DNA of 64,000 nucleotides from an uncultured Gemmatimonadaceae bacterium (GCA_963817955.1 CAWFQK010000009.1:64001-128000), one strand, 5' to 3'; shown: positions 2,467-33,500, counted from the stretch's first letter. Notes: a model not told the origin generated them from the sequence alone. Translations and numbers: made by a program.

Positions 2467-2965
2467 GCGCGTGCGGTGCGCGTCGAGCGGCGTCCGCTCG
2501 AAGTCCGAGCAACGTGCGACCGCCTTCAGCATCCGCGGATACGTGGCGCACCGGCAGAGGTTGCCGCGAGCGCGTCTGTGATTTCGTCGCGCGACGGATG
2601 CGGATTGTGGTCGATGAGCGCCTTGGAGGACATCAGCGCGCCGCTCGTGCAGTAGCCGCACTGCAGCGCCCCATGCTTGACGAACGACTTCTGCAGCGGA
2701 TGCAGTTCGCTGCCCTGCGACAGACCCTCGATCGTCGTGACTTCCGTTGCCCTCCGCCTCCGCGGCGAGCGTGAGACATGCCGCCGTCGCCTCGCCGTCG
2801 ATCTGCACCGTGCATGCGCCGCAGTCGCCGGTTCCACAGCCGCTTTTGGTGCCGGTGAGATCCAAGTTCGTCGCGCAGCGCGGCGAGCAGGGTCGTGTTG
2901 GGCTTCACCGCCAATGTGGCCGGCTGTCCGTTGACGGTCAGGTGAACGAGCCGCTCGCCGCTCAT
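2443..2965 (-). CDS. hcrC: 2x[2Fe-2S] small subunit of the molybdoenzyme (HcrC/CoxS-like), frameshifted
   Basis: GTKSGCGTGDCGACTV, LQCGYCTSG and GNLCRCATY motifs across frames. Confidence 0.8.
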
Positions 2966-3841
2966 GTGTGCCTCGTGTTGGCCGTGGCGCGTTTGGACGC
3001 GGATTCGAGCGCGCGGAACGCCAGCACCGCGATGATTTCACGCCGAAAGTCGGCTGATCCGCGGACGTCGCTGATCGGTCGCGCAGCGGCAACGCACGCC
3101 TGCGCCGCGCGTGAGAACAGCGCCTTGGAAGGTTGCTCGCCGCACGAGTATCGATGCGACTTCCGGCACCAGCATGGCGGTAGGTGCGACCGCGCCGAGT
3201 GCGACACGTGCGCCCACGATGCGGGGGCCGTCGAAGTCGAGACGAGCCGCGACGGACGCGACGGCAAGCGACATCCCGCGGCGCAGTCCGAACCGCTCGA
3301 AGCTCGTGCCGCTATTTGGCGGAGCCGACGGGAATCTCAGCTCCACGAGCAGCTCGCCGGGGGCGAGCACGGTGCGGCGCGCATCCACGAAGAACGCTCC
3401 GGCTGGAACCTGCCGCGTGCCATTCGCCGACGCGATGTGCAGCGTTGCGTCGCCGATCAATGCCGCGGGTGGCAGATCGGCGCACGACACGGCGCGACAG
3501 AAGTTGCCGCCCACCGTTGCTCGGCTGCGGACTTGCGGGCTGCCGATCGAGCGCGCGGCTTGGGCAAGTGCCGGAAGCCAACCCTCGACGAGCGGCGACC
3601 GCGCCAGCTCGGCCACGGTCGTGAGACTGCCAATCCGCAGCGCGTCATTCTCCACACTGATGCCGCGCAATGCCGCAATGTCGCGCAGAGCGATGAGGTC
3701 GACGGCCTGTTCCCGCCCACGCTGATAGTCGGGAATCAGCTCGGTGCCACCGGCGAGGAACACGGCGCTGCCGCCGAGCTGCTGTGCGAGTACGCAGGCG
3801 TCGCTCACGGTCGCCGGCCGATGGTACCGGAAATCGAGCAT
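2962..3841 (-). CDS. FAD-binding medium subunit of the molybdoenzyme (CoxM/HcrB-like, without the [4Fe-4S] insertion), frameshifted near the 3' end
   Basis: MLDFRYHRP, LAGGTEL, IGSPQVRSRATVGGNF, PISDVRGSADFRR. Confidence 0.8.
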
Positions 3842-16616: not shown

Positions 16617-16665
16617 TGACAGGATATGACAAGAGTTGACACAAGCGCTCAGGAACGGCTAGAAT
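16617..16665 (+). promoter_or_regulatory. Promoter TTGACA-N18-TAGAAT with three TGACA direct repeats at 10-bp period
   Basis: TGACA at 16617, 16627 and 16637; the third lies in the -35 (16636-16641); TAGAAT at 16660-16665. Confidence 0.7.
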
Positions 16666-16682
16666 AACCACGCCTCCCTGTC

Positions 16683-17405
16683 TTGTGTCGATTGCCAGAC
16701 CTCCTGAGCCCCAAACAACTCGCCGAGTACCTCCAACTCTCGCAACGGACGATCTACCGTCTGTTGGAGCGTGGTGGCATTCCAGCCGTCAAGGTCGGCG
16801 GCCAGTGGCGCTTTCGAAAAGCCGCCGTCGACGAGTGGCTCGATGTCAGCATGCAGCGTCTCGATGTCGCGTCGCTGCGGGTACTCGAGGACGATGTCGA
16901 GCACCGCATGCCGCCGCCGCCGCTCGCCGATCTCCTGGATCCGACCAACGCGCGAATCGTCGTACCGGTGACTGGTGCGGCCGAGCGGGCCGATGTCGTT
17001 CGTTCGTTCATCGCGCAGGTTCACTTTCCCGAGCCGGTCTCGCCGGACCTTGTCGCCGATCGGGTGCTCGAGCGCGAGGAAATGTGCAGCACGGCTCTCA
17101 CCGACGGCGTTGCGCTGTTACACACACCGCGCAGCCGGCCGCGTGTGCTCGCGTCGCATGACCTGATCGCGATCGGACGCCTGCAGGCGCCAATTGATTT
17201 CAGCGCGATCGACGGCAGTCCGACTGACACATTCATTCTCCTGCTCGCCCGCAGCGAACGCGATCAGCTCGCCCTGCTCGCCAAACTCGCGCGCCTGTGC
17301 CGCGAGCCGGGTTTTCTCGCGGCTCTGCACGATGCGCACGGCGCGAACGACGCGTTGGCGCTGATCCGCACCACCGAACACCGTCTTTTCTCGGGCGCGC
17401 GCTGA
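16683..17405 (+). CDS. Excisionase-like HTH + PTS EIIA-domain regulator (copy 1)
   Basis: LLSPKQLAEYLQLSQRTIYRL..GIPAVKVGGQWRF; C-terminal REEMCSTALTDGVALLH, IDFSAIDG. Confidence 0.9.
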   Translation: MCRLPDLLSPKQLAEYLQLSQRTIYRLLERGGIPAVKVGGQWRFRKAAVDEWLDVSMQRLDVASLRVLEDDVEHRMPPPPLADLLDPTNARIVVPVTGAAERADVVRSFIAQVHFPEPVSPDLVADRVLEREEMCSTALTDGVALLHTPRSRPRVLASHDLIAIGRLQAPIDFSAIDGSPTDTFILLLARSERDQLALLAKLARLCREPGFLAALHDAHGANDALALIRTTEHRLFSGAR

Positions 17406-17420
17406 CGGCGCGCCGTACTC

Positions 17421-18140
17421 ATGCATCTGACTCTCCGACAAGCTGCTTCTTACCTGAACGTGACCGAGCGGACGGTTCGCAAATGGATCACGACGCGCGG
17501 ACTGCCTGCTCATCTGATCAACGAGCGCCTGCACTGCAACGCAATCGAGTTGTGGGAATGGGCCGTGGAAAACGGTATCGCGGTCTCAAAGGGATTGCTC
17601 GAACAGGCGCGCGGTGCGCCGGACGAGATTCCGCCGCTGTCACAATTGCTTGCGATGGGTGGCATTCACCGTGACGTCGGCGGCGGCGCGAAGTCGGACG
17701 TGCTGCGTGGGCTCGTCGGCGTGTTGCCGCTGCCGGCGGAGGTCGACCGGGAATTTCTCGTGACGGTGCTCGAGGCCCGTGAGGCGATGGGGTCGACGGG
17801 GATCGGCGATGGCATCGCGATTCCGCACGTACGCAATCCGATTCTGCTACACGTCGACCATCCATTCATCGCGCTGGCACTGCTCCGGCACCCCGTGGAG
17901 TTTGATGCGCTCGACGGAAAACCGGTCCATGCGTTATTCGCCGTCGTCAGCCCGAATGTGCCGGCGCACCTTCGCATACTCTCGCAGCTTGGCTACGCGC
18001 TGCGTGATCCAGAGCTCAGAGGACTGCTGCGCAGCGCGGCGCCCAGCGCCGCAATCCTGGCGCGCGTCGTCGCGCTCGAGTCGTCGGCAGGGGCATCGAG
18101 TCGGGCGGCGGCGACGGTCCCTGCCGTGAGGAACGGGTGA
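17421..18140 (+). CDS. Excisionase-like HTH + PTS EIIA-domain regulator (copy 2)
   Basis: LTLRQAASYLNVTERTVRKWI; REAMGSTGIGDGIAIPHVRNP, VEFDALDGKPV, HLRILSQL. Confidence 0.9.
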   Translation: MHLTLRQAASYLNVTERTVRKWITTRGLPAHLINERLHCNAIELWEWAVENGIAVSKGLLEQARGAPDEIPPLSQLLAMGGIHRDVGGGAKSDVLRGLVGVLPLPAEVDREFLVTVLEAREAMGSTGIGDGIAIPHVRNPILLHVDHPFIALALLRHPVEFDALDGKPVHALFAVVSPNVPAHLRILSQLGYALRDPELRGLLRSAAPSAAILARVVALESSAGASSRAAATVPAVRNG

Positions 18141-20104
18141 ACGCACTCGGTGTCGCGCTCCTCGCATGGGGACTTAGTGCGGTGGCGGCGCTCTCGGCGC
18201 GGCGATGGCAGGGTGCACCCGCGGTGGGCGCGGCGGGCGCGGTGATCGGCGGCATTGCCGCTGCCGCTTCCGCCATTGGCGCGCTGAGTACCGGGGTATC
18301 GGAACACTGGACGACGCCATGGACCCTGCCGGGTGGCGCACTCTCGTTTCGCCTCGACGCGCTTGCCTCGGTCTTTCTCCTGCCGATCGCGGTCGTTGGT
18401 GCGCTCTGCGCGGTTTACGGCGTTGCCTACCTCCGGCAGCACGCGCATGGTCGTCCAATGGGGGGATCGTTCGCCGCGTACAATCTTCTGCTCGTCAGCA
18501 TGGCGGTCGTCGTCACAGCGGACGATGTGCTGCTGCTCCTGGTCGCCTGGGAGTTGATGACGCTGAGTTCGTGGGCACTCGTGGTGAGCGACCACGACGC
18601 ACCGGCAGTGCGCGCGGCGGGGTTGCAGTATCTCATCGCCGGGCATCTCGCGACGGTGGCGCTCCTGTTGCTCGGCGTTCTGCTCGCGAGCGCGAGCGGC
18701 ACATTTGCGATCTCTGCTCTCGCGGCGCCAGCAGCGATGACGGCCCGCGCTGCGTTGCCGGCTGGGTTGCTGTTCCTTCTGGCCCTCGTTGGGTTCGGCA
18801 CCAAGGCCGGCATCGTACCGATGCATGTGTGGTTACCGGATGCACATCCTGCGGCTCCGTCGCACGTATCGGCGCTGATGTCGGCGGTGATGATCACGAT
18901 GGGCTTCTACGGGTTCGCGCGCTTTGTTCCACTTCTTGGAGATCCATCGCCGTGGTGGGCGTACCTCCTGATGACCCTCGGCGCGGCCGGTGCCATCGGA
19001 GGCATCGTGTTCGGCATCGCGCAGCGCGATGTGAAGCGAACGCTTGCGTATTCGACGGTGGAGAACGCCGGCATCATCACGATGGCCATGGGTCTGGGCG
19101 TGCTCGGCACCTCGCTTCATGCGCCGTTGCTCGCCGGGCTCGCGTGGACGGCGGCGCTGCTGCACCTCTGGAATCACGCGTTGGCCAAAGCACTGCTCTT
19201 TCTTGGTTTCGGGGCCATTGCGCAGAGCGTCGGCAGCCGAAGCCTCGATGCAATGGGCGGGCTGCTGCGCAAATGGCCCACAGTAGGCGGCCTGCTCGTC
19301 ATCGGTGCCGTGGCGATCGCGTCGCTGCCCGGCCTCAACGTCTTTGCGAGCGAGTGGCTGCTCTTGCGCGCGCTGTTTGCCGGTGTGACCACGTTGACTG
19401 GTGGGTCGCAGATCGCACTGCTCGGCGGCGTCGTTGCGCTCGCGCTCACCGGTGCGATCAGCGTCGCGTGCTTCACACGGCTTGTCGGACTCGGACTGCT
19501 CGGCACACCGCGAAGCGCGGCAGTCGAGGCAGCGCCGGAGCCGGGATGGACGATGCGCGGGCCGCTCCTCGTGCTCGGCGGCAGCTGCATCGGGATCGCG
19601 GCGGTGCCGGCGCGTGTGACTGCTGCTCTCACTGACGCGGTGCACATTGTTGCGCCGAGTGCCGACGTCAGTATCGTTGCCGAAATCCTCCAGCCGCTGG
19701 CGGTGCTGCTTCCGCTGCTGATCGGGGCGATCGTGGTGCTCGTCGCGCTGCGCGAGCTCGCCGTACGACATGCGCTGCGACGTGATGGTGCAACGTGGGG
19801 GTGCGGGTATCCCGAACCGACCGCCCGTATGCAATACACGTCTACGTCCTTTGGCGAGCCGCTGACTCGCGTGTTTCAGCCGATGCTGCGCACCGACTCG
19901 CGCGCAACGACGACCGCGTGGTGGTCGGAGACTCCTGACCGCGTTCTGATGCAACTCTACATGCCGATGGTCGATGCCGTTCGACGGGCGGGGCAGAGAA
20001 TCCGGTCCCTGCATTCGCCGCGTGTCACACGCTCGCTGTTCTATGTGGTCGCGACCGTACTCGTTCTCATTGCGCTCCTCTTCCGCCCGGGGGGTGGACG
20101 GTGA
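18137..20104 (+). CDS. Ehr/hydrogenase-4 antiporter-like membrane subunit (HyfB/NuoL family), copy 1
   Basis: Multi-TM; AWELMTLSS, GFGTKAGIVPMHVWLPDAHPAAPSHVSALMS, LAYSTVEN, TWGCGY. Confidence 0.9.
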   Translation: MNALGVALLAWGLSAVAALSARRWQGAPAVGAAGAVIGGIAAAASAIGALSTGVSEHWTTPWTLPGGALSFRLDALASVFLLPIAVVGALCAVYGVAYLRQHAHGRPMGGSFAAYNLLLVSMAVVVTADDVLLLLVAWELMTLSSWALVVSDHDAPAVRAAGLQYLIAGHLATVALLLLGVLLASASGTFAISALAAPAAMTARAALPAGLLFLLALVGFGTKAGIVPMHVWLPDAHPAAPSHVSALMSAVMITMGFYGFARFVPLLGDPSPWWAYLLMTLGAAGAIGGIVFGIAQRDVKRTLAYSTVENAGIITMAMGLGVLGTSLHAPLLAGLAWTAALLHLWNHALAKALLFLGFGAIAQSVGSRSLDAMGGLLRKWPTVGGLLVIGAVAIASLPGLNVFASEWLLLRALFAGVTTLTGGSQIALLGGVVALALTGAISVACFTRLVGLGLLGTPRSAAVEAAPEPGWTMRGPLLVLGGSCIGIAAVPARVTAALTDAVHIVAPSADVSIVAEILQPLAVLLPLLIGAIVVLVALRELAVRHALRRDGATWGCGYPEPTARMQYTSTSFGEPLTRVFQPMLRTDSRATTTAWWSETPDRVLMQLYMPMVDAVRRAGQRIRSLHSPRVTRSLFYVVATVLVLIALLFRPGGGR

Positions 20105-22071
20105 ACCTGCTCGCGCTCGGCTTGATGACAATCCTGCTGGCGGGGATTGCGGCCATTGCCGGCGCGAGGCTGGGCGTATTTAGAGGACTCGTCATTATCG
20201 GCTGCGTCGTGGGCATGGTGCCGGTCCTTCGCGTGCTGCGTGGCGCACCGGCGCTCGCCGTGAGCCTTGGCGCATCAGGTCCGGTTGGCGAGTGGGTGTT
20301 CGGGCTGGACGCGCTGTCGGCGTTGTTTCTCGTTGCCATCTTTGCGGTTGGTGCGGCGTGCGCGGTCTACGGAACCGTCTACCTCGCGCCAGTCCCACGC
20401 AATGGAGACAGTCATTCGCGGGGTGTCGTCGCGGCGCACGGCCTGATCGCGCTTCTCGTGGTCTCCCTGGCGCTCGTCGTCACCATCCGCTCGGCCATGG
20501 CGTTCCTCATGGCTTGGGAAGTAATGGCCGTCGTGTCGTATTTCCTCGTGGTCGTCGAATCCGACAAAGCCGCGGTCCGCCGGGCCGGCATGATCTATAT
20601 CGTTGCAACGCACACCGGGCTGCTCGCGCTTTTTGGTATGTTCGCATGGTGGGGGAAGTATGCCGCAGACCTGACCTTCACGTCTCTGGCCGCGGCGGCG
20701 CCGCGGCTTCCAGCCGGCGGCGCGGCGGTACTCGTGCTCGCGCTCATCGGCTTCGGGCTCAAGGCGGGCCTCGTACCGCTGCATTTCTGGCTTCCCGAGG
20801 CGCACGCCGCTTCCCCATCGCACGTGTCGGCGATCATGTCGGGTGTCGTGATCAAGATGGGCATCTACGGCCTGCTCCGCGTAATCGCGTTGATGGGCGT
20901 GGTGCCGGCGTGGTGGGCGTGGCTCCTCCTTGGCTTTGGAATGCTGTCGGGCGTGCTCGGCGTCGTGTGGGCCCTGGCGCAGCACGACATCAAGCGTCTG
21001 CTCGCCTTTCATAGTGTCGAGAACATCGGGATCATCCTGCTCGGCATGGGAATCGGGGCGCTGGGCCTCGCGTACGGCCATCCGGCGGTGGCGTTGTTGG
21101 GCTTCGCGGGCGCGACGCTGCACACACTCAATCACGCACTGTTCAAGAGCTTGCTCTTTCTGGGGGCCGGCTCGGTGATTCACGCAACGGGAACCCGCGA
21201 TATCGAACGGCTCGGCGGAGTCGCTCGGCGAATGCCGCAAACCGCGACCACGTTCCTCCTCGCGTCGGCGGCGATCGTGGGATTACCGCCGCTGAACGGA
21301 TTCGTCAGCGAGTGGATCGTATATCGTGCGATGTTGCGGATCGGACTCGTGGCCGACGTAAGTCGTCTGGCGGTTCTGTCGGCGCTTGCGCTCGCCCTCA
21401 TCGGCGGTCTGGCGCTCGCCTGCTTCGCGAAGGTGATTGGAACTATCTACCTTGGCACGCCGCGCGATATCTCAGTGGAGTCGAAGCACGAGTCCCCGCC
21501 AGGAATGACGCGTCCGCTCATTGGTCTCGCGGCGGGATGCGCCGTTATCGGCCTGCTGCCCGTGCTCGTGTTGCCGTCGATTCTGCGTGTCGCGGAGGTG
21601 ATGGCGGGCGCGATAGGAGCGGCTGACCCGGCGTCCGAAGCGCTTGTTCTGGCGTCGGGTACCGCGATGACGTGGCTGGCGTGTGGCTTGACGCTACTGG
21701 TGGCGTTGGTCTGGGCGGTGCGCGCCGCGTTTCCTCGCGATCGCGAGACCCTGGGGCCGACGTGGGGGTGCGGCTATCCCGGCGCGACGGCGCGCATGCA
21801 GTACTCGGCGTCGTCCTTCGCCGCGCCCGTACTGACGGTCTTCGTCGCAGTCGCCGGCGTACACGCGCATCGCACGCCGCGCTCCTTCGCGACGCACGCC
21901 GTCGACCCAATGCTAGACGATGCCGTTCGTCCGGTATGGCATCGGCTCAAAGCCGTCGCCGATGGCCTGCGGCCGATTCTTCAACGCGGCCGGCTCTCCT
22001 CCTATCTGCTTTACATCGTAGCAGCCTTGATGGCCGTGCTGCTCTATCTCCTGTTCGGCGGAGCTTCCTGA
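20101..22071 (+). CDS. hyfB: Ehr/hydrogenase-4 antiporter-like membrane subunit (HyfB family), copy 2
   Basis: AWEVMAVVS, KAGLVPLHFWLPEAH, LLAFHSVENIG, NHALFKSLLFLGAG, GLPPLNGFVSEW, TWGCGY. Confidence 0.9.
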   Translation: MNLLALGLMTILLAGIAAIAGARLGVFRGLVIIGCVVGMVPVLRVLRGAPALAVSLGASGPVGEWVFGLDALSALFLVAIFAVGAACAVYGTVYLAPVPRNGDSHSRGVVAAHGLIALLVVSLALVVTIRSAMAFLMAWEVMAVVSYFLVVVESDKAAVRRAGMIYIVATHTGLLALFGMFAWWGKYAADLTFTSLAAAAPRLPAGGAAVLVLALIGFGLKAGLVPLHFWLPEAHAASPSHVSAIMSGVVIKMGIYGLLRVIALMGVVPAWWAWLLLGFGMLSGVLGVVWALAQHDIKRLLAFHSVENIGIILLGMGIGALGLAYGHPAVALLGFAGATLHTLNHALFKSLLFLGAGSVIHATGTRDIERLGGVARRMPQTATTFLLASAAIVGLPPLNGFVSEWIVYRAMLRIGLVADVSRLAVLSALALALIGGLALACFAKVIGTIYLGTPRDISVESKHESPPGMTRPLIGLAAGCAVIGLLPVLVLPSILRVAEVMAGAIGAADPASEALVLASGTAMTWLACGLTLLVALVWAVRAAFPRDRETLGPTWGCGYPGATARMQYSASSFAAPVLTVFVAVAGVHAHRTPRSFATHAVDPMLDDAVRPVWHRLKAVADGLRPILQRGRLSSYLLYIVAALMAVLLYLLFGGAS

Positions 22072-22982
22072 TGACGATAGGCGCGCTGGCCGCGCTCGCG
22101 GTGCTATTGGTGTTCGCTCCGGCCATGCCGGGTATCGCGACGCGGACCAAGTCGTTGCTCACCGGGCGCCGAGGCGCGCCGGTGATGCAGCTCTACTACG
22201 ATTTGTGGAAATTGGTGCGCAAGGGAACTGTCTACAGCACCACGATCACCTGGGTGTTCCGCGCCGGGCCGCTGATCGTGCTCGCGTCGTTGTTCGTCGC
22301 GATCCTGTTTCTGCCGCTCGACGGCCAGAGCGCACTCGCGCACTTTGCCGGAGACCTGGTGGCGTTTGCCGCGCTGCTCGCACTCGGCCGCTTCGCGTTG
22401 GTGCTCGCCGGACTCGACACCGGTTCGAGCTTCGAGGGGATGGGCGCGAGCCGAGAGGTGATGGTCGCGACGTTCGCCGAGCCGACGCTGTTTCTTTGCT
22501 TTCTGGCGCTGGTGCTGGCCACGGGCGATCTGTCGCTGAGCGGCATGTTCGGCGCTCCGCTCGCGGCGGCCTGGCCGCATGCGGCGGCGTCGCTCACGCT
22601 CGTGGGCTTGAGTCTCTTCGTGCTCCTCCTCGCCGAGAACTCGCGTGTGCCGGTGGATGACCCGGCAACGCACCTCGAGTTGACGATGATCCACGAAGTG
22701 ATCGTGCTCGATCATAGCGGGCCGGATCTCGCCGTCGTGCTGTATGGAAGCGCGCTCAAGATGTCGGTGTTCTCGGCCTTGATCGTATGCCTGTTCGTGC
22801 CGCGCGCCGGCGTGACGCCTGCTGTCGCGATCGCCGTGCTCGTCGTGGGGCTCGCTGCGGTGGCCGCGATTGTGGGCGTTGTGGAATCGGTGATGGCGCG
22901 AGTACGGATGACGCGTATCCCGCAACTGCTCGTCGCCGCGGCGGCGCTCGCGGCGTTCGGGATCATTCTTCTGCTGCGCTGA
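22071..22982 (+). CDS. hycD: HycD/HyfC (NuoH-like) membrane subunit
   Basis: GRRGAPVMQLYYDLWKL, LDTGSSFEGMGASRE, ENSRVPVDDPATHLELTMIHEV. TGA/ATG overlap. Confidence 0.9.
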   Translation: MTIGALAALAVLLVFAPAMPGIATRTKSLLTGRRGAPVMQLYYDLWKLVRKGTVYSTTITWVFRAGPLIVLASLFVAILFLPLDGQSALAHFAGDLVAFAALLALGRFALVLAGLDTGSSFEGMGASREVMVATFAEPTLFLCFLALVLATGDLSLSGMFGAPLAAAWPHAAASLTLVGLSLFVLLLAENSRVPVDDPATHLELTMIHEVIVLDHSGPDLAVVLYGSALKMSVFSALIVCLFVPRAGVTPAVAIAVLVVGLAAVAAIVGVVESVMARVRMTRIPQLLVAAAALAAFGIILLLR

Positions 22983-23686
22983 TGATGATGATGACTCCGT
23001 TCACCTTTCCGGTGGCAGTGGGTGACGCCGCACGGGCGCTTCCCATATCCCAGACCGCGCCCGAGTTGGTGCTGCTGCTGGTCGTGCTGACTGACTTTGC
23101 CGTGCTCGGTAGCACGCGCCTCAGCACCTGTATTCGCGCCCTTGCGGTTCAGGGGTTTCTCCTCGGGATGCTGCCGTTGTTGCTCGCGCCGAGTTTGTCG
23201 GTGCACGTCTCGGTGCTGGCGGTGGGGACTGTGGCGGTGAAGGGCGTCGCGTTGCCCTGGTTCCTGCGATGGGCCATTCGCGAGGCGTCGGTGCGGCGTG
23301 AAGTGGAGCCCATGGTGGGCTTCATCGCATCGCTGCTGCTGGGCGCGGCAGCGGTTGGACTTGCATTCGCCATTGCCGCGCGGCTGCCGCTGCCCGCTTT
23401 GAGCACCGAGCTCCTCGTGCCGGTGTCGCTCGCCACCGTGATGATTGGCTTCGTCGTACTCACCACGCGCCGCAAGGCGGTGACCCAGGTGGTCGGCTAC
23501 CTGATGCTCGAGAACGGCATCTACCTCTTTGGGCTGACGCAAACGGAGAGCGTGCCCTTTCTCCTCGAAGCCGGCGTGCTGCTCGACATCTTCGTTGGCG
23601 TGTTCATCATGGGCATCGTCGTCTTTCACATCAATCGTGAATTTGACTCAATCGACTCAACGCGTCTCACGGAGCTGAGCGACTGA
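22982..23686 (+). CDS. hyfE: HyfE-like membrane subunit
   Basis: Hydrophobic; RRKAVTQVVGYLMLENGI, EAGVLLDIFV, INREFDSID. Confidence 0.85.
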   Translation: MMMMTPFTFPVAVGDAARALPISQTAPELVLLLVVLTDFAVLGSTRLSTCIRALAVQGFLLGMLPLLLAPSLSVHVSVLAVGTVAVKGVALPWFLRWAIREASVRREVEPMVGFIASLLLGAAAVGLAFAIAARLPLPALSTELLVPVSLATVMIGFVVLTTRRKAVTQVVGYLMLENGIYLFGLTQTESVPFLLEAGVLLDIFVGVFIMGIVVFHINREFDSIDSTRLTELSD

Positions 23687-25131
23687 TGCGGCTTCTGCTC
23701 CTCTGCGTGCTGCCGCTCCTCGGAGCGATCGCGGCGGGTGTCCTTCCCGGCGGTCGTGCACGGGTGGCGATTGCACGGCTGGCTGTTCTTGTCGGCGTGG
23801 CGCTCGTTCACACCGCCATCGTTGCGTCGATCTGGATTGCGCCGCCGCCGCCAATGCTCGGTGGCTGGCTCGCCGCCGATGCGCTCGGCCTCATCGTGCT
23901 CACGCTCACGAGTGTGCTGTTCGTGCTCACGGCGCTCTACTCCATCGGATATCTACAGCGCGAAACCCCCCGTGGCGGTCGGTTCTTCGTCAGTGCGATG
24001 CTCGTGTTCCTTGGCGCGACGACGGTGGTGTCCGTCAGTCAGCATCTCGCGATGTTGTGGGTTGGCATGGAGGCAACGACGCTCGCTGTGGCGCCGCTGA
24101 TCTATCATCGCCACGACCGCCGTTCGCTCGAAGCGGTGTGGAAGTACCTCCTGATCTCGTCGGTCGGCATTGCGCTCGCCCTGCTCGGCACGTTCTTCCT
24201 CGCCAGCTCGCAGGGCGAAGGCGCGGGCCGGCCGCTGGTGCTCACTGATCTTCTCGCCCATGCGCGGATGCTTCATCCCGCGTGGTTGCGCGCCGCATTC
24301 CTGTTCCTCCTCGTCGGCTTCGGAACGAAGATGGGGCTCGCACCCATGCATACGTGGAAGCCGGATACATACGGCGAAGCGCCGAGTCACGTCAGCGGCT
24401 TGATGGCCGGCGCGCTGACGAGCTGCGCGTTCCTCGGTGTCGCGCGCATCACGGAAGTCGTGATGGCGGCGGGTCTGGGCGCATTCGCGCGGCCGGTGCT
24501 GATCGGCTTCGGCCTGTTGTCGCTCGTCGTCGCGGCGGCGTTTGTGATCGGGCAGAACGACGTCAAACGGCTGCTGGCGTACTCGAGCGTCGAGCATATG
24601 GGATTGTTGGTACTCGGGCTGGGACTTGGGGGCGTCGGTGCGTACGGCAGCGTGCTGCACATTCTCAACAATGGACTCACCAAAGGTTGGATGTTTCTCG
24701 TCGTCGGAAACGTCGTGCTGGCGAGTGGCAGCTCCGTCGCCGCGGCGAATCGCGGTCTGCTGCGCCGGCTACCTGTGTCCGGCACGCTGCTCGTGCTGGG
24801 GTTGTTCGCCGTCACGGGCTCACCGCCATTTGGAACCTTTCTCAGTGAATTCACGATCCTGCGCGCTGCCGTGAACGGCGATCACGTCTGGATCGCGGTG
24901 ATCACGCTGCTGCTGCTGGCGGTGATCTTCGTCGGCATGGGGGCGCTCGTGCTCGATATGGCGCTCGGGTCGCCGGAACCCGATACCGAACCGATGCGCG
25001 AGAGCGGCTGGTTGATTCTCGGACCGATCGTCCTCGCGGCCGCGGTGCTCGTGCTCGGTGTCTACATTCCCGGACCGCTACACGAAACGCTAGCACGAGC
25101 CGCCGTCGCGCTCGGAGGGACGGCACCGTGA
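23686..25131 (+). CDS. hyfF: HyfF-like antiporter-type membrane subunit
   Basis: WVGMEATTL, SLEAVWKYLLISSVG, GFGTKMGLAPMHTWKPD, KRLLAYSSVEHMG, GSPPFGTFLSE. Confidence 0.9.
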   Translation: MRLLLLCVLPLLGAIAAGVLPGGRARVAIARLAVLVGVALVHTAIVASIWIAPPPPMLGGWLAADALGLIVLTLTSVLFVLTALYSIGYLQRETPRGGRFFVSAMLVFLGATTVVSVSQHLAMLWVGMEATTLAVAPLIYHRHDRRSLEAVWKYLLISSVGIALALLGTFFLASSQGEGAGRPLVLTDLLAHARMLHPAWLRAAFLFLLVGFGTKMGLAPMHTWKPDTYGEAPSHVSGLMAGALTSCAFLGVARITEVVMAAGLGAFARPVLIGFGLLSLVVAAAFVIGQNDVKRLLAYSSVEHMGLLVLGLGLGGVGAYGSVLHILNNGLTKGWMFLVVGNVVLASGSSVAAANRGLLRRLPVSGTLLVLGLFAVTGSPPFGTFLSEFTILRAAVNGDHVWIAVITLLLLAVIFVGMGALVLDMALGSPEPDTEPMRESGWLILGPIVLAAAVLVLGVYIPGPLHETLARAAVALGGTAP

Positions 25132-26666
25132 CCGCACTGTCCAATACGGCCGCGACGAGCGGTTTCGACGCCCTCGGCCTCCGGAACCGCCGCGCGGTGC
25201 CGCTCAGTGCCGTTCCCGTAGAATCCCCGGAGCGATTCCGCGAGACAGTCATCGCCGCCACCGTTGCTGGCTGGCGTATCGCGGCGCTGTTCGGTGTTCC
25301 TGAAGATGGAGATCTCACGCGAATCCTCGTGATTCTCGCCGACGACGCGCACGGAGAGCTGGGGGCGACCAGCACCCTCGTCGGAGATCGCTATCCGGCC
25401 CTCACGCCGGACTGTCCCGAGGCGCATGCGTTCGAGCGGGAAATTGCTGAGCAGTGCGCGGTGATCCCCGAGGGACATCCCTGGCTCAAGCCGCTGCGTC
25501 GGCATCTGCCCGATCATCGCGTGGCGAACCGCACGAACGTGGTGCTCAACCCGGCGTCGTATCCATTCTTTCGTGTCGAGGGCGAGGAGGTGCACGAAGT
25601 TGCCGTCGGCCCGGTGCATGCGGGCATCATCGAGCCCGGACATTTCCGTTTTCAGGCGCATGGCGAGGAAATTCTATTCCTCGAGATCATGCTCGGGTAC
25701 CAGCATCGTGGTGTCGAGCGTCTGCTCGAAACGGTTGACGCCGCGCGGGCGGTGCTCGTCGCAGAATCGATCGCCGGGGATAGCGTCATCGCGCACGTCG
25801 GCGCGTACTGCGGGGCGATCGAGGCACTGTCGCGCACGCGCAAGACACCGTACGCGCAGACCATCCGCGGAATGGCGCTGGAACTTGAACGAATGGCGAA
25901 TCACATCGGCGATCTTGGCGCGATCAGCGGCGATGTGGCGTTCCAGCCGGCGGCGGCCTTCTTCGGCCGCATGCGCGGAGAATGTCTCAATCTGCTGATG
26001 ACACTATCCGGCAATCGGTACGGTCGCGGCCTCGTGCGGCCAGGCGGCGTCGCGTTCGATCTCCCACCCGCAATGGTGGCCGACATGCACGGACGGCTCG
26101 AGCGGCTGCGCGACGAGCTGGATCCGATCGCGGCCTTGCTGTTCGGCAGCGCGTCCGTGCAGGCGCGACTCGAGGGAGTGGGGGTGGTGACGCGGCAGCA
26201 GGTCCTGGAGCTTGGGCTTGTCGGTCCGGTTGCGCGGGCATGCGAAGTATCGCGCGACGTTCGGCAGGATCATCCGTACGGCATTTTCCGCTTTGCGCAC
26301 GTCCCGATTGCTACGGCGTGGGCGGGCGACGTCCATGCGCGAGCGCTCGTGCGCTGGCATGAGGTGCGACGCTCCCTGGCATTCGTCCTCGACCAGCTCG
26401 CGGCCCTGCCGAAGGGTGCGTTGCGCGTCGGCATCGGCGCCCTGCGGCCGAACGAGATGGTGGTGGCGATGCAGGAAGGCTGGCGTGGCGAAATCGTGCA
26501 CGTCGTAATCACCGACGATCGCGGCGGTATTCGCCGCCACAAAGTCGTCGACGCATCGTTCCACAACTGGTCAGCCGTGGCACAGGCGCTCCCCGGCAAT
26601 CAGATCTCTGATTTCCCGCTCTGCAACAAGAGCTTCAACCTGTCGTATGCTGGCCATGATCTCTGA
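25128..26666 (+). CDS. Ehr large subunit (HycE/NuoCD-like) lacking NiFe-binding CxxC motifs
   Basis: AFEREIAE, EVAVGPVHAGIIEPGHFRF, GYQHRG; ESIAGD at the L1 RxCGxC position; C-terminus DFPLCNKSFNLSYAGHDL instead of DPCxxC. Confidence 0.9.
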   Translation: MTALSNTAATSGFDALGLRNRRAVPLSAVPVESPERFRETVIAATVAGWRIAALFGVPEDGDLTRILVILADDAHGELGATSTLVGDRYPALTPDCPEAHAFEREIAEQCAVIPEGHPWLKPLRRHLPDHRVANRTNVVLNPASYPFFRVEGEEVHEVAVGPVHAGIIEPGHFRFQAHGEEILFLEIMLGYQHRGVERLLETVDAARAVLVAESIAGDSVIAHVGAYCGAIEALSRTRKTPYAQTIRGMALELERMANHIGDLGAISGDVAFQPAAAFFGRMRGECLNLLMTLSGNRYGRGLVRPGGVAFDLPPAMVADMHGRLERLRDELDPIAALLFGSASVQARLEGVGVVTRQQVLELGLVGPVARACEVSRDVRQDHPYGIFRFAHVPIATAWAGDVHARALVRWHEVRRSLAFVLDQLAALPKGALRVGIGALRPNEMVVAMQEGWRGEIVHVVITDDRGGIRRHKVVDASFHNWSAVAQALPGNQISDFPLCNKSFNLSYAGHDL

Positions 26667-26701
26667 TCGTCTCCTTCCTCCGCCTCGCGCGGGCCATCTC
26701 C

Positions 26702-27511
26702 ATGTTTGAGCTATTGCGTGCGCGCCTGCAGCAGGGCACACGCACGTCTTCATATCCCGATGGTGGCGACGCGCTACCGGCCCGATTTCGTGGATTGCCT
26801 GTCGTCGATCCAACGCCCTGCACCGGATCGAATGAAGTCCCGTCATCGCTCGTGACGTCGGCGCCCGACGGGCGCGCGGTGCTCGACGTCGGCGCCTGTT
26901 TGTTCAGCCCCGAAGAGGCTGCCTGCACGACGGCCGGCAGGGTCGTATTCACGCGCGACTATCGCATGGCAACGTCCACGCGCGACGGCCTCGTTTCGGC
27001 CAGCGGGGAAGTGGAGCTCGCGCACGCGCTCGACGCCCGTATGAAATCCATGTTTGGCCGCGCGCTCCGACTGCGGTCGGTCGTGGCGGGGAGTTGTGGT
27101 GGATGCGAAGCCGAGTTGCAGGCGCTCAGCAACGTCGTGTTCGATCTCGCTCGGTTCGGCATCCAGTTCGTGGCTTCGCCGCGCCACGCCGATGGGATCG
27201 TCGTGACCGGCGCGCTGAGTCGCAACATGCGGGTTGCCCTCGAAAAGACGTTCGAGGCCATGCCGGCGCCGAGTCTCGTGATCGCGGTGGGAGCATGCGC
27301 CATCTCCGGCGGTCCGTTTCGCGGTAGCGACGCCGTGGCGAACGGGATGCCGTTGGACTGGCCGGTCGATCTCTACGTTCCCGGATGTCCGCCGCATCCA
27401 CTGACCATGCTGGACGGACTGCTGCGACTGCTCGATCGGTTGCCGCCGGAGCGCGTGGCGCCGGCGCGCGAGCGCTCGGAATCGGGGATCGCAGCTCAGA
27501 GCCCGGGCTGA
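26702..27511 (+). CDS. Ehr small subunit (HycG/NuoB-like) with N-terminal degenerate ferredoxin-like domain
   Basis: GSCGGCEAE, FVASPRHADG, GACAISGG, VPGCPPHP; N-terminal RFRGLP..LDVGACLF. Confidence 0.88.
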   Translation: MFELLRARLQQGTRTSSYPDGGDALPARFRGLPVVDPTPCTGSNEVPSSLVTSAPDGRAVLDVGACLFSPEEAACTTAGRVVFTRDYRMATSTRDGLVSASGEVELAHALDARMKSMFGRALRLRSVVAGSCGGCEAELQALSNVVFDLARFGIQFVASPRHADGIVVTGALSRNMRVALEKTFEAMPAPSLVIAVGACAISGGPFRGSDAVANGMPLDWPVDLYVPGCPPHPLTMLDGLLRLLDRLPPERVAPARERSESGIAAQSPG

Positions 27512-30500
27512 GCCACGACTCCCGCGCCGAGTGTGACGATGACGGTGTGCGCCGCGCCGTCATCCAACAACACGATTGTGCGGTCTGCTGCCACAGCCCC
27601 GTCAACGGTAACGCCGCTGACCCCTCGGCAGACACCGTCCGGGTTGCGCACCTCGATCGCATACGTGCTGGCGCCGTAGGTATACCCGATCGTGAACTGC
27701 TGCCACGCGGCGGGAATGCACGGATCGATCTCGAGGCGATCGCCGCGCTTCGCGAAGCCAAGCATGCCTTCCAGCGCGACGCGGTAGCTCCAACTCGCCG
27801 AGCCGGTGTACCACGTCCAACCACCGCGGCCCTCCTGGCCGGCCGCCGAATATACGTCTGCCGCGACTACGTAGGGTTCGACCTTGTACCGTTCCGCGTC
27901 GGCAGGCGTGCGGGTGTGCGACAGTGGGTTGAGCATGCTCATGAGCTCACCGGCCAAATTCCCATCGCCCAGTTGTGCCATCGCCAGCACCGTCCAGAGG
28001 GCTGCGTGGGTGTACTGCGCGCCGTTTTCCCGTACGCCGGGTACGTACCCTTTGATGTACCCCGGATCACGCTCTGACCGGTTGAACGGCGGCGTCAGTA
28101 ACAGAATGATGCGCTCATCGTTACGAACCAGTCGCTGGTTGACAGCCTGCATGGCGGCACGTGCACGGACCGGATCGGCCGCGCCGGACAACACGGCCCA
28201 ACTCTGGGCAATCGCGTCGATCTGGCATTCGGGATCGGCGGATGTGCCAAGCGGCGCGCCGTCGTCGAAATAGGCGCGCCGATACCAGCCACCATCCCAG
28301 CTCGTGCGTTCCACCGCGGCCACATATGAGTTGGACTGAGCCAGGAAGCGCGCCGCGGTGTCGGCGTCGCCGCGCGCTGTAGCGTGGGCGGCAAATCGGC
28401 GGAGCGTTGTCGCGAGGAACCACGCGAGCCAGACGCTTTCCCCCTTGCCGTGCACACCGACGCGATTCAGACCGTCGTTCCAATCCCCCGACCCGATGAG
28501 CGGTAATCCATGCTCGCCGGATGTGCACGCATGATCGAGCGCCCGAACGCAATGCTCGTAGATGGTGCCGGTCTCGCCACTGTCTGTCGGCTTGTCGTAC
28601 ACCTCTTGCTCGCCGGGGGCAAGCAGTCGCATGGCGAGGTACGGCGCGCGCGCGTCCCAGAACGCGGCATCGCCGGTGATCTGCACGTAGTGATCTGCGA
28701 CGAACGGCAGCCAGGCGAGATCGTCGGAGAAACGCGTGCGGATGCCGCGACCAGACGGCTCGTGCCACCAATGTTGCACATCGCCCTCGAGGAACTGCCG
28801 CCCCGCGGCACGAATCAGATGGGCGCGCGCAAGTTCCGCGTCGGCGTAGACGAATGCCATGCAATCCTGCAACTGGTCGCGAAACCCGTACGCGCCGCTC
28901 GACTGATACAACGCCGAGCGCGCCCACATCCGGCATGAGAGCGCCTGGTACAGGGACCAGCGGTTGAACAGTGCATTGAACTCGGTATCCGGCGTCTGCA
29001 CGCGAATGACCGACAGGCGCTTGTCCCACGCCGCCGTTGCCTCCTGCATGGACCCCTCGGCCGCAGCCGGCGCTCCATGACGTCCGATCAATGCACGTGC
29101 GTCGTCGTCGCTCTGTGCGGCACCGAGCAGGACGACGACCATGCGCGTCTCGCCCGGCTCGAGTGTGATGTTGCATCGCAGCGCCGCGCACGGGTCGTGC
29201 CCGACGCCCGTGGCACCGGACAGTCGATCCTGGCGCATGCCGAGGGGCGTCGTCAGATCGCCATTGCGGCCGATGAAGTGATCGCGGCGCGCCGTGTAGC
29301 TCGTGGGCGTTTCACTGATCCATGAAAACGCCACGCGCGTCGTGAAATCGGGTGCGTAGAAGTTCTGGGCGAGGATTGCGCCCGACGCCGCATCGTGTCG
29401 CGTGTGAAGCTGATGTCGTGTGTGCTCACGTTCGGCGCCGAGCGTCAACTCGACATAACTGGTCAGCGAGAATCGCCGTGGCGTGCTGCCACCATTCGTG
29501 ATGCGCAGACGCGCGATCTTGACGGGATCGGCAAGCGGCACCGCGAGCGTCAGCTCGGTCTCGATATCGCCGCGCTCGTGGACGAACCGCGTCATTCCCG
29601 GAGCGTGTGTGACGGTGTACTCCGGCGCATTCGCTCCCATGGCGCAAGCCGGGCCGGGCGTGGGCGTCCAGACGACTCCACTGGCGAGGTCGCGCAGATA
29701 GAGTACTTCACCGCATGGGTCGGACACCGGGTCGTTGAACCAGGGCGTCAATCGGAAGAAATAGCTGTTTTCTGCCCACGTGAAACCGCCGCCACGTTCG
29801 GTGACGCAAAATCCAAACGACGGATTCGCGATGACGTTCGCCCAAGGCGCCGGTGGCACGCGGCCGCCCGCCACGCTCATCGCGAAATCGTCGGCCTCGG
29901 TCAGCGCGCCGTATCCGTTCGCGTACGTGGCCGGGACGCGCGCCGGCCGATGGGTGGCGAGCACCGTCTGCAGGACCGGCTCCATGGCAGCTACGCGCGG
30001 CTCGGGACGCGCGTGTGACGCAGCGTGGCTGAGAACGTTCGCGGCCACGATTGCACCGAGACCCACGCCGTCACACGACAAATGGATGCGCGCAGTCGTT
30101 CGCAGCAGTGCAGTGTCTTCTGGTGACAGGACGTCCGCTCGCCGAATGAACACGCCGCCAGGCTGCTCGAGCACACCGCCCTCGCTCGACGCCATCGCCA
30201 TGGTGACGAGTTGATCGTGCAATTCCTGGGCGTACGAATGCGGCTTCGCGTTCAGAATGACGAGGTCGGAACGAACGCCCTTCATGCGCCAGTAGTTGTG
30301 GGCCACCAGTAGTTGCCTGACGCTTGACAGGCCGGCCTCCGCTCTGACGGTTGCGAGGACGATCGGCCAATCGCCGGAAATCCCCTGCGCCCACAGTGCC
30401 GTCTGGCCGCGGGTGACGGCGGCCCGCTCGCTTTCCGGCGCGCGCAGCGCTTCGTGTGGGTAGATGAGGGCTCCGGCCAACTCGTGATACAAGGCGACAT

Positions 30501-33500
30501 CGGCGGGGGCGATGGCGAGATCGCGCAGTTCGATCTCCGCCTCGGTGCGCGACAGACTCAGCGCTCGCTCGGCCGCCGCGATCTCGCGATATCGATCCGC
30601 CAGTTGCAGCGCCGCCTCGCGGCTGCCGGCGACCGCTGTCGTAAAGGCCACCGCCGCCGACCGCCGAGGCTCGATGCGTATGCGAACGCGGAGCGCCACA
30701 ATCGGATCGAGAACCGCACCGACGGTACCGGACAGCGTCGCGTTCGCGTCGAGCGCGCGCGGCGCATGAATCGTTCGTCCGCGTCCCAGAAAGTGCGCGC
30801 GGTCCGTTTCATAGCTCACCTCGCCAACCCGTTCTGGTCCGGTGGCCACCACGTGCGCACACCAGGGCCGTGCCTCATCGTTCGAACGCGGCCGACGCGT
30901 CGCGAGGAGTGTCGCTCCCGGCACCCACTCCGTTTCGACGAAGAGTTTCTGAAATGCCTGATGGGCGCGGTCGGCGTCGGCGGGGCACAGGACGACCTCG
31001 CCGTAACTCGTGAGTTCGATCTCGCGCGTGACGTGCGAGCGGTTCACGAGCGTCACGCGCCGGACCTCGGCCTGTTCGCTCGCAATGACGACGATCTCGG
31101 TGTGCGTATCCACCCCGCCGTCGCGCCGCGTGAACGTGACGCGATCGGTCGCAAAGGTCGCGCGATACGACGATGGTAGCGCGCGCACTGGTTGATGCGC
31201 CACGGACCAGATGGTACGGGCGGTGAGATCCTTGACGTAGATCCACTGGCCACTGTCGTCCTGTGTCGCGTCCGCTCGCCACCGGATCACGTCCATGCCG
31301 TTCGCGCGGCTCTGTCCGGAGCCTGAGTTCGTGAGGAGCACGCTGTACCCGTTGCTTCCGAGCAGTCCCACGTGCGGCTCGGGCGTGTCGGGCGTATCGA
31401 CTTCGTGCACGAAGATCTGCATGCGCGTGGCGCCTTCCGCGCTGCGCACCGGTTCGTCCGTTTGCGACGGACGCGGCACGTAGCGGCGCGGGATGCGTTC
31501 GTCGAGCAAGAGGGCCGCGGCGCGCACCATGGCATCAGCCATGAAACGCCGCTGCCAGATTCCTTCCGTCTCCGTCTCACGCAGACTCAGAGCGTTGTCC
31601 AACGCGACGAGGCTCATACCCACGTGATGCGCCATGAAGGTACGCACGACCGCAACGCGCTGGTCAGGCCCGATGCGCGTATAATCGAGCGCGTCGTAGA
31701 AACCGTATTGACCGAGGGCACCCTGCCGCTCCAACTCGGCGAAATTGCGCAACGCCGCGTGGGCATCGACCGTGGCGGCCAGCGCCGTCGCATACGGCGC
31801 CACCACGAGTTCGCTCGCCAGGCCGCGCTTGAGCGCGAGGTCCGGAATGCCGAATGCGCGATACTGATACGTGTCGTGCCGGTCCCGGACGTTGTATGCG
31901 GATTCGGAGACGCCCCACGGAGTGCCCCGCGCGTGTCCGTAAACGATCTGGCGGTGAACCGCGGCGTGACAGGTTTGATCGAGCAGCGAGAACGGCCGCG
32001 GCGGCATGACCAGCAGCGGCATGAGATACTCGAACATGCTCCCGCTCCACGACACGAGCGCGGTGGCACCATCCACCACAGTGAGCGAGCGGCCGAGTCG
32101 AAACCAGTGCTCGGTGGGCGCATCGCCCTTCGCGATGGCGAGGAAACTCGCCAGGCGCGACTCCGACGCGAGCAAATCGTATGACGATTCGTCCAGCTTA
32201 CCGGTTCGCGCATCGTACCCGATCGCAAACAGCCGACGCTGCGGGTCGTAGACGAGTTGGAAGTCCATTGCGGTCGCCATGTCGCGTGCGCGCCGCGCGA
32301 GCGCGTCCAGCCGATCGACCAGTGTCGCCGCGCCAGCCGACGCGCGGGCCGCCGTTCGTAGCGGCGTGCGAGCTTCCGTTTCGGCGTCGAGTTCCAGTGC
32401 GGTGAGTTCGGCGGCAGCCGCTTCCAGTCGCTGACGCGCCCACACGGTCGCGGCGGCCGTCTCGGGCGAGTTCGCGCTCGCGGTGGCACGCCGTCGCAGG
32501 TCGAGCGTTGCGCCGTGGTAGGCTAACAGCCGTTCCCCAACCCACGGAGCGCGTCCGCTGCCGCCGTCGGCGGGGCGACTACCGTACTGGATGCCCTCGG
32601 CGTCGAGCGCTGCCCAGAGCCGTGCGTCGTCCACGGGACCATCCGCCATTCCCAGGCAGCCTTGCGCGACGGCGACGAGATGGCCGGCGAGATTCCCTGA
32701 ATCTACCGTCGACACGTACGGAGGATCGAGCACGCGCAAGTCGCTCAGGTCATACCAATTGAAGAAGTGTCCGCGCAGGCGCGACATCCGATCCAACGCG
32801 TCGAACGCGCGTTCCAGACGGTCGAGCGTCTCGCCGCGCGTGAGGATTCCGAGGTCGCACGCCGACATCGTGGCCAACAGCTGTAGTCCGATGTTCGTTG
32901 GCGACGTGCGCGAGGCGATGATCGGTTCGGGAGTCTCCTGGAAATTGTCGGGAACGAGCCAGTGTGTCTCGGCCGTGACAAAACGATCGAAATAGCGCCA
33001 GTGACGGAGCGCGTACCGGAGAGCGGTTTGGCGCTGGTCGGCATCGAGCGACCGATCGCGCCGCAGCAGGGGCGCGCTCAGGGCGATCGCCACCTCCGGC
33101 GCGAGCAACCATGCGACGGCCAGGCCGGCGAAGCCAGCCGTCGATGCCAACTGCGCGGCTCCGTGAATGGCAACGGATGTTGCGTGCCAGGCGACGAGCG
33201 ACATGATTGTGCCGCCGAGGAGCGTTGCGGGCCACATGCGTTGCCAGACTGATCGTCTGCTGTGGCCGGTCGTTCGCTCGGTCTGCGATGCCGTCTGCCA
33301 CTCGAGCATTCGGCGGTGGCGCAGGACCCGGACGATGCTGCGCACGATCGCGTCGCCCGCGAGCAGCGCCTGATCCGGCAGCAGGATCACGGCCAGGCCG
33401 AGTTGTTCGATGGCGCGCGATGCATCGCCGCCAAGCGCGACATAGTAGGGCCGCCAGCTATGTCCGCGCGGTGGGCGCAACGCCGCGAACAGGAGCGGCG

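Follow-up and report, generated by a model that had tools for sequence, protein, structure and literature searches.

What does a membrane complex built like a [NiFe] hydrogenase do once the ligands for its metal have gone, and why are its genes headed by two DNA-binding proteins of the phosphotransferase system (PTS)? Both questions are raised by a nine-gene operon in a 64,000 nt stretch of DNA (here the window), part of a 4.5 Mb Gemmatimonadaceae-type genome. An initial annotation of the window had taken the operon for a candidate PTS-controlled, ion-pumping redox module of the Ehr type and for an uncharacterised system. By sequence, the operon is a member of the known Ehr/Hyq family of NiFe-less relatives of group 4 hydrogenases. 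We are fairly confident both of this assignment and that the two PTS-type proteins, A1 and A2, would act as dedicated transcription factors. The whole is, on balance, probably best explained as an Ehr/Hyq-type complex that moves ions, has no wire to a soluble electron donor and is expressed under the control of A1 and A2.

Ehr complexes are Ech- or energy-converting-hydrogenase-related complexes, and their founding papers are said to be those of Coppi in 2005 and Marreiros in 2013. We know of no substrate that has been established for them since they were named. As Ehr complexes lie between membrane hydrogenases and complex I, their chemistry bears on the origin of respiratory proton pumps. 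In the accessible parts of two publications, they are described as missing the NiFe ligands and as having an unknown function (PMC6349859, PMC10284858).

Operon architecture and the large subunit

Nine intact, tightly coupled genes, read as open reading frames (ORFs), extend from 16683 to 27511. Coordinates are 1-based positions of the whole window, and all of the operon genes lie on the plus strand. Their products include two fusions of a helix–turn–helix (HTH) domain to an EIIA domain.

16683–17405, plus strand, A1: 240 aa, TTG start; HTH_17 and PTS_EIIA_2 (Pfam); A1-type subfamily with active-site region VALLH
17421–18140, plus strand, A2: 239 aa; HTH_17 and PtsN-like PTS_EIIA_2 (Pfam); GIAIPH motif with His136
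18137–20104, plus strand, B1: 655 aa; HyfB/NuoL-like antiporter-type subunit, a divergent extra copy; Proton_antipo_M
20101–22071, plus strand, B2: 656 aa; HyfB/NuoL-like antiporter-type subunit; Proton_antipo_M
22071–22982, plus strand, D: 303 aa; HycD/NuoH-like membrane subunit; NADHdh
22982–23686, plus strand, E: 234 aa; HyfE-like membrane subunit with a NuoK-like C-terminal part; Oxidored_q2 below cut-off
23686–25131, plus strand, F: 481 aa; HyfF/NuoM/N-like antiporter-type subunit; Proton_antipo_M
25128–26666, plus strand, L: 512 aa; NuoC/NuoD-like large subunit without NiFe ligands; Complex1_49kDa
26702–27511, plus strand, S: 269 aa; HycF-like half-ferredoxin remnant and NuoB-like part; Oxidored_q6

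This composition and the tight coupling of the genes had been annotated initially, and all nine assignments were confirmed. Overlaps of 4 nt are found between A2 and B1, B1 and B2, and F and L, and 1 nt overlaps between B2 and D, D and E, and E and F; gaps of 15 and 35 nt separate A1 from A2 and L from S, respectively. The best NCBIfam models were HyfB, HyfE, HyfF, NuoD and NuoB, and as every score was under the equivalog cut-off, the proteins are relatives of Hyf and Nuo subunits and not their equivalents. The first gene had been placed from 16617, which is incorrect. The A1 frame is shut by a TAA at 16665–16667 and is not open before 16668. No open frame has its start codon at 16617, which is instead the first TGACA repeat of the promoter region described below.

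The best solved-structure match of L is E. coli HycE (7z0s_E, E 2.4e-45). In this match and in our own alignment, HycE residues C241, C244, C531 and C534 correspond to A216, S219, S506 and G509 of L, so that neither NiFe CxxC motif is present, as had been claimed. A search of 1.84 billion cluster representatives returned 838 proteins related to L at E ≤ 1e-30. From the best 150 matches, 111 of 440–600 aa were aligned and the remaining 39, which were fragments or fusions, were dropped. Only eight of the 111 have all four NiFe cysteines, and 103 lack the full set. The window's L and these 103 cysteine-less sequences form a single 104-sequence clade with a support of 0.969 (FastTree, rooted on E. 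coli NuoCD). This clade excludes the eight representatives with four cysteines, HycE and HyfG, in a tree that has no Mbx, Mbh or Ech references. Thus, alignment and tree agree that L neither has Ni ligands nor groups with the cysteine-bearing hydrogenases, and the identification as an Ehr-type, NiFe-less group 4 relative stands.

Two motifs of the cysteine-less family, ExIxGDxxxAH and FPLCNKSFNLSYxGxDL, are present in L, and residues E213, G217, D218, N500, K501, S502, S506, Y507, G509, D511 and L512 are invariant or nearly so in 40 sequences. Gly217 aligns with the Tyr in the DRIEYLGG segment of E. coli NuoCD, which we take to be the quinone-head-binding Tyr of NuoD. When the alignments are extended, the C-terminal L512 falls opposite R537 of HycE, presumably the endopeptidase processing site and the end of mature HycE, and L has no C-terminal extension beyond it. 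The CxxC motifs, the C-terminal extension and the nearby maturation genes of group 4 [NiFe] hydrogenases are all missing. The complex, whose L is without NiFe ligands, is therefore no standard [NiFe] hydrogenase.

When one genome per species was scanned, at least 598 related loci came up, and the locus statistics given here are from the best 80. The gene order B-D-E-F-L-S is common to these 80, which come from Planctomycetota, Verrucomicrobiota, Geobacter and its relatives, Acidobacteriota, Spirochaetota and other groups.

The closest described systems share most of this plan. The Ehr cluster of Geobacter (GSU0739–GSU0745) has, according to the accessible part of its description, six subunit types that match those of the window operon in kind and order, and a large subunit without NiFe cysteines. 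Geobacter-type loci (L028 and L046, with approximately 50% L identity) were recovered among the relatives, although GSU0743 itself was outside the alignments. What sets the window operon apart from Geobacter Ehr is an additional HyfB-like gene and a leading pair of HTH-EIIA genes; moreover, its S has lost ferredoxin-type cysteines that the Geobacter-type loci keep. All of the Ehr subunits of Geobacter sulfurreducens (GSU0739-45) have been detected by proteomics, in a paper whose accessible text says that their role has 'never been investigated' (PMC7894505).

The six-subunit core is also that of Hyq from Azorhizobium caulinodans (hyqRBCEFGI), which we liken to the window operon by its description. 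In the accessible text on hyqBCEFGI, HyqG is a 504 aa NuoC::NuoD fusion without both CxxC motifs, deletion mutants evolved approximately ten times more H2 in N2-fixing cultures, and the authors consider a NiFe site unlikely and note the lack of any cell-free assay (PMC3357923). The NuoB-like HyqI has four cysteines and, going by the cysteine numbering in that text, seems to be without the N-terminal half-ferredoxin domain of which the window's S has a remnant. The Hyq operon includes HyqR, called a transcriptional activator, and, as far as the accessible text describes it, no HTH-EIIA protein (PMC3357923). The label 'uncharacterised' has to be softened in view of the Hyq H2-recycling mutants (PMC3357923) and the Geobacter proteomics (PMC7894505), as far as these are described in the accessible texts.

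For L, B1, B2, E and F, the best matches among solved structures and NCBIfam models are to E. coli hydrogenase 4 (Hyf) and to hydrogenase 3/formate hydrogenlyase (Hyc; PDB 7z0s), which have the same membrane-arm architecture. In contrast to them, the window complex has no NiFe cysteines, and its counterpart of HycF has shrunk to a domain that holds no cluster and is joined to S. Complex I shares the four N2-type cysteines with S, but its NuoD Tyr is missing in L, and NuoEFG genes are not adjacent to the operon.

In two of the related loci, two Ehr-like gene series lie within 21 kb. One is from the Geobacteraceae (L046, 4867–12289 and 13248–20566) and the other from the Verrucomicrobiota (L060, 2–2340, 2262–9998 and 9824–12274).

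The membrane arm and the iron-sulphur sites

In an alignment of B1, B2 and F with E. coli NuoL/M/N, HycC and HyfB/D/F, each of the three retains the Glu of transmembrane helix (TM) 5, the Lys of TM7, the His/Lys of TM8 and the Glu of TM12, as in NuoM and HyfB, and the residues found agree with the E. coli numbering. With proton-channel residues intact in three antiporter-like subunits, the membrane arm appears complex-I-like and its pump part looks functional. In a tree of B subunits, B1 is on a long branch with the B1 of L014, and B2 groups with the single B of L011. The possibility that A1 and B1 arose together in a co-duplication was considered and rejected. Genome G016 has A1 and A2 with one B and genome G146 has one A with two B (B counts read from the distances between A2 and L), and the tree contains lineage-specific duplications of B.

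The small subunit had been named in the initial annotation, but its HycF-like N-terminal remnant had been missed. The N-terminal 100 residues of S align with the first half of HycF, and V46, S69, E72 and T76 stand where cysteines of the HycF-like cluster have been lost. The NuoB-like C-terminal part has C132, C135, C199 and C229, aligned with the cysteines of HycG and HyfI.

These sites were compared in 61 family S subunits (the window's S and 60 locus ORFs) and in another 20 genomes of Gemmatimonadota; the two samples share one genome or more (G068, which is L014). All four NuoB-type (N2-type) cysteines are present in 57 of the 61, and they are complete in all 18 further Gemmatimonadota S subunits that are uncut by a contig end. 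The ferredoxin-type cluster was scored at positions 46, 66, 69 and 72. All four of these cysteines were found in 52 of the 61 S subunits, two were ambiguous and seven had lost them, and six of the seven are the Gemmatimonadota sequences in the set, all six of them, the window included. Among the further genomes, Cys at positions 69 and 72 is replaced in 16/16 from the family to which the window belongs and its sister (f1 and f2), as is position 46 in the 13 with an intact N-terminus, and the set is kept in 4/4 from two other families of Gemmatimonadota (f3 and f10). Hence, three of the four ferredoxin-type cysteines of S have been lost in the window's order of Gemmatimonadota, with the N2-type site kept.

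The converse is also found. Four loci (L072, L052, L026 and L043) have lost NuoB-type cysteines and keep the N-terminal six. The gene series is intact in L072 (Actinomycetota) and L052 (Opitutae), and L026 and L043 look broken. As the ferredoxin-type site has been lost in Gemmatimonadales and the N2-type site in others, no single Fe-S site is universal in the family. Judged from these ligands, the electron wire is cut in the window's lineage, and a complete wire is not universal among Ehr complexes. That the ferredoxin-type cluster is dispensable across one order, and the N2-type cluster elsewhere, narrows the possible role of the peripheral arm. The description of the operon as a redox module is weaker than claimed, with the ferredoxin-type cluster gone here and the N2-type cluster gone elsewhere.

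A domain reading of the operon flanks in the window found no hyp, hyc, HycB/HyfA, FdhF, HycI, formate dehydrogenase or NuoEFG genes adjacent, and the claim that maturation, formate dehydrogenase and NADH-input genes are missing there was upheld. Flavoprotein, formate dehydrogenase and hyp families were also found in 0/43 same-strand ORFs downstream of S (Pfam, 43 of 58 candidates scanned). The same genome, however, holds a genuine [NiFe] hydrogenase large subunit (PF00374, 783 bits) together with HypD on another contig (G000:C4:1480178-1481725 and C4:1486679-1487716), with no relation to the Ehr operon, which qualifies the claim about maturation genes.

The HTH-EIIA proteins and the promoter region

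HTH_17 was detected in A1 with 66.5 bits and in A2 with 28.8 bits, against a Pfam cut-off of 27. When a family profile of the EIIA part of A2 was compared with the PDB, E. coli PtsN (1a6j) matched with E 9e-24 and its histidine aligned with that of GIAIPH; the match to the mannitol EIIA was 5e-8. An AlphaFold2 model of A2 (pLDDT 90.4) has PtsN structures as its best Foldseek matches, with TM-scores of 0.72–0.75 normalised to the target. His136 in the GiAiPH motif is invariant in 31/31 A2-type sequences, and the HTH core residues are conserved. A2 thus shares the EIIA type 2 fold and this histidine with EIIA-Ntr (PtsN), and A1 has VALLH. PtsN stands alone at approximately 150–160 aa, whereas A1 and A2, of 240 and 239 aa, have an N-terminal HTH_17. 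The A1 type is a subfamily apart, and its HTH sequence is distinct. Matches to the NCBIfam models 'excise' and MADS1 raised a mobile-element or excisionase origin, which was rejected because this HTH_17 is part of an EIIA fusion and is conserved where a metabolic operon begins.

Association of these genes with Ehr was examined in two samples. An A gene is inside the cluster in 43 of the 80 loci, from 11 named bacterial groups, and is directly ahead of the HyfB-like gene in 41 of those 43. HTH_17 was found in 20/20 and EIIA_2 in 18/20 of the A-like ORFs scanned, and either domain in 0/27 upstream ORFs from loci without an A gene (Pfam). Among 151 Gemmatimonadota genomes, L was called in 26 (E ≤ 1e-60) and an A-like match in 38 (E ≤ 1e-10). 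A is present in 25 of the 26 L-bearing genomes, the exception being G057, an unpublished genome with a weak L match, and in 22 of these genomes it precedes L by 5.6–7.8 kb, sharing its contig and strand. Homologues of A2 with 68–88% identity are in many Gemmatimonadota contigs, and an A2-type gene followed by a HyfB-like gene was seen in 24 of the 30 loci returned for A. The regulators are therefore co-conserved with Ehr, the A2-type gene standing at the head of Ehr operons in many phyla; a lack of such conservation would, by its own terms, have refuted the initial annotation. Tandem A1-A2 pairs were also found in genomes G076, G016, G125, G068, G137, G110, G144 and G053. A1-type orthologues are found in Gemmatimonadales genomes, and are behind S in L007 and in the Actinomycetota locus L072.

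The association is not strict. Of the 80 loci, 15 have no A gene although 1.3 kb or more of sequence is available on the upstream side, and 22 are cut or ambiguous. In Geothrix paludis an Ehr cluster is present, but the whole genome gives no A-like match at E ≤ 1e-8, and A2 is thus not obligatory to the complex. Full-length A-type paralogues have other neighbours: a gene for a CLC channel in two Ehr-less Gemmatimonadota genomes, one for a stand-alone EIIA in a Planctomycetota genome and one for an extracytoplasmic function (ECF) sigma factor in a Verrucomicrobiota genome. Together with the phased repeats of the promoter region, Geothrix and these paralogues lead us to read A2 as a putative PTS-responsive transcription factor and not as a subunit.

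Upstream of A1, the following were identified:

16617..16641, plus strand, three TGACA direct repeats starting at 16617, 16627 and 16637 with exact 10 bp spacing; candidate operator overlapping the -35
16636..16665, plus strand, sigma-70-like candidate promoter, by consensus match alone; TTGACA at 16636–16641, 18 nt spacer and TAGAAT at 16660–16665

Repeats of the form TGNCA-N5/6-TGNCA around TTGACA were found in 5 of 27 upstream regions, all of them led by A1 and from Gemmatimonadota, compared with a mean of 0.33/27 in random windows and 0.12 in shuffles. By eye, the pattern is present in L095 too. The region before A1 was also considered as a sigma-54 promoter, which was rejected, as the TGGCA-type repeats of relatives do not fit GG-N10-GC spacing by eye.

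Other upstream repeats were seen in relatives. In L104–L109, from family f10 and with A2 only, ATGTC(C/T) repeats approximately 11 nt apart are approximately 20–70 nt upstream of the A2-type gene and just downstream of a TTGACA/TAnnnT pair; by eye, they have a GACA/TGTC core in common with the window's repeats. In L099 (G110:C249), from a Gemmatimonadales genome, the 7 nt unit CTGTCCT occurs approximately ten times at about 650–780, upstream of A1.

The genome carrying the window has genes for HPr and Enzyme I, which come after one for a mannose-family EIID, as well as genes for a PtsN-like protein that stands alone and for an EIIA-CBS fusion. As Enzyme I follows HPr after the mannose-family EIID gene, the phosphoryl donor would be the general PTS, and a PtsP/NPr branch is not evident. 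The fusion (L090, 1483–2364, contig C4 of the same genome) joins a weak EIIA_2 to CBS domains and is directly after succinyl-CoA ligase genes.

Genes for ion or solute carriers were seen near some A-type genes. In 4 of 19 loci tested, such a carrier is the same-strand neighbour just upstream of the A2-type gene. The carriers are SulP with STAS in L023 (2579–4378, Omnitrophota) and L063 (2330–4237, Verrucomicrobiota), a Na/Ca exchanger in L017 (2986–4026, Sedimentisphaerales) and an SBF carrier in L073 (2888–3952, Bacteroidota). In G009 and G006, which have no Ehr match, a gene for a full-length HTH_17-EIIA_2 protein precedes, on the same strand, one for a CLC-type chloride channel (L111, 1441–2241 with 3–1355, both on the minus strand; L112, 1444–2154 with 2262–3608, both on the plus strand). 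The carriers beside A2 and the CLC genes after A-like paralogues may be a weak hint of a role in ion homeostasis.

Possible roles of the complex and its regulators

Under the explanation that we favour, the operon is self-contained and its product is a membrane arm of B1, B2, F, D and E capped by L and S. The antiporter-like subunits would move protons or another cation, with no wire to a soluble electron donor. This movement would be coupled to an event at the junction of L, S and D that involves the single remaining cluster, predicted to be one N2-type [4Fe-4S] beside the conserved polar pocket of L, whose lining would be E213, D218, H223, N500, K501, S502, S506, Y507 and D511. HPr would phosphorylate the conserved histidine in the PtsN-like EIIA domain of A1/A2, and these proteins would bind the GACA-core direct repeats at the promoter. 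The phosphoenolpyruvate (PEP)/PTS state of the cell would then decide when the complex is made from genes that are probably co-transcribed.

Other chemistries can be set beside this one. A redox-driven ion pump would pass electrons from a soluble or membrane donor via S to an acceptor, such as quinone, in a cavity of L, S and D, and pump protons as complex I does. This is a possibility, but a doubtful one. All the parts that build the quinone cavity of complex I have NuoH-, NuoD- and NuoB-like counterparts here, the L pocket motifs are conserved, the antiporter-like channel residues are intact, and N2-type cysteines are kept in nearly all of the family and in every complete Gemmatimonadota S. 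However, the ferredoxin-type relay cluster has been lost throughout the window's order, N2-type ligands have gone from L072 and L052 despite intact gene series, electron-input genes are neither adjacent in the window nor among the 43 ORFs scanned downstream of S, and the NuoD Tyr, to which we attribute a role with quinone, is replaced by Gly. A cysteine-less 'endo-hydrogenase', as proposed for Hyq, would oxidise or evolve H2 at an unorthodox site within L, with quinone as its partner in electron exchange, and is most improbable here. The shared subunit types, the HyqG without CxxC and the H2 phenotype of the hyq mutants (PMC3357923) speak for it, as do the true NiFe hydrogenase and the Hyp maturation genes elsewhere in the window genome, but L has no metal-binding cysteines and hyp genes are not adjacent. 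Moreover, in its accessible text the Hyq paper itself calls a NiFe site unlikely and reports no cell-free assay (PMC3357923), Hyq is likened to the window operon by description alone, and its phenotype is tied to H2 from nitrogenase.

More speculatively, and with rather low probability, Ehr complexes might be ion-transport machines that no longer need electron flow, their wire cut differently by lineage. Cluster and pocket would then serve as a sensor or gate, and the PtsN-like regulator would tie the complex to the carbon and energy state of the cell. The membrane arm and the L pocket are kept in lineages that have lost either cluster, namely Gemmatimonadales, an Actinomycetota and an Opitutae lineage. 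If so, the regulator may act alongside the SulP, CLC, Na/Ca exchanger and SBF carriers found near such regulators.

Several observations weigh against the PTS-regulated, ion-moving complex that we prefer. Retention of the N2-type cysteines speaks for the importance of some redox or cluster-dependent step, and the Hyq mutant data, as given in the accessible text, point to a link with H2 that our explanation does not account for (PMC3357923). The TGNCA pattern is absent in 22 of the 27 upstream regions, including those of the A1-led L099 and L100 and of all A2-only loci. Enzyme I of the window genome is split into two overlapping frames (L092, 114–1499 and 1387–1884, contig C4, minus strand) directly after HPr and EIID, one with the N-terminal domain and the other with the mobile and PEP-binding domains. 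Either a frameshift, which might leave the phosphorelay of this genome broken, or an assembly error would account for the split. Finally, A2 and the HyfB-like gene overlap or are no more than 4 nt apart in 22 of 30 pairs, and Geobacter-type loci keep A2 beside B even when the pair is divergent from the main operon. Such tight A2-B pairing would also fit a direct protein partnership.

A1 and A2 might, in that case, not be transcription factors, or not only, but peripheral partners that dock on the HyfB-like subunit and, depending on whether they are phosphorylated, gate the pump. We regard this as very unlikely. The EIIA part is PtsN-like, and PtsN acts by protein binding, EIIA-Ntr being known to bind TrkA or KdpD. 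In addition to the close spacing, A2 is directly before the HyfB-like gene in 41/80 loci, even in divergent pairs (L028 and L046), and lies between two B genes in Verrucomicrobiota. Against docking are the HTH_17 domain found in all 20 A-like ORFs tested, the conservation of its core residues, the 15 loci with enough upstream sequence and no A gene, Geothrix paludis without a homologue at E ≤ 1e-8, and the paralogues that adjoin unrelated genes. A literature search that covered few subscription journals and no supplements found no paper joining EIIA or PtsN with Ehr.

If A2 is the transcription factor that we take it to be, a PtsN-like DNA-binding regulator found across many phyla predicts a condition, the PTS phosphorylation state, under which the complex would be made, and there are culturable carriers such as Geobacter. 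The value of the locus is in these leads and not in a discovery.

The public sequencing runs listed with small shares of the window sequence are three soil DNA runs and no RNA run. Immediately outside the operon, the genes are unrelated to it, and a TonB-dependent receptor gene is found upstream. At the other end, a 2852 aa frame on the minus strand (27496–36054) includes GH94 supersandwich, GH94 catalytic and glucoamylase-like domains and resembles a cyclic beta-1,2-glucan synthase. This giant gene is convergent with S, and the two overlap by 16 nt at the 3' end of the operon.

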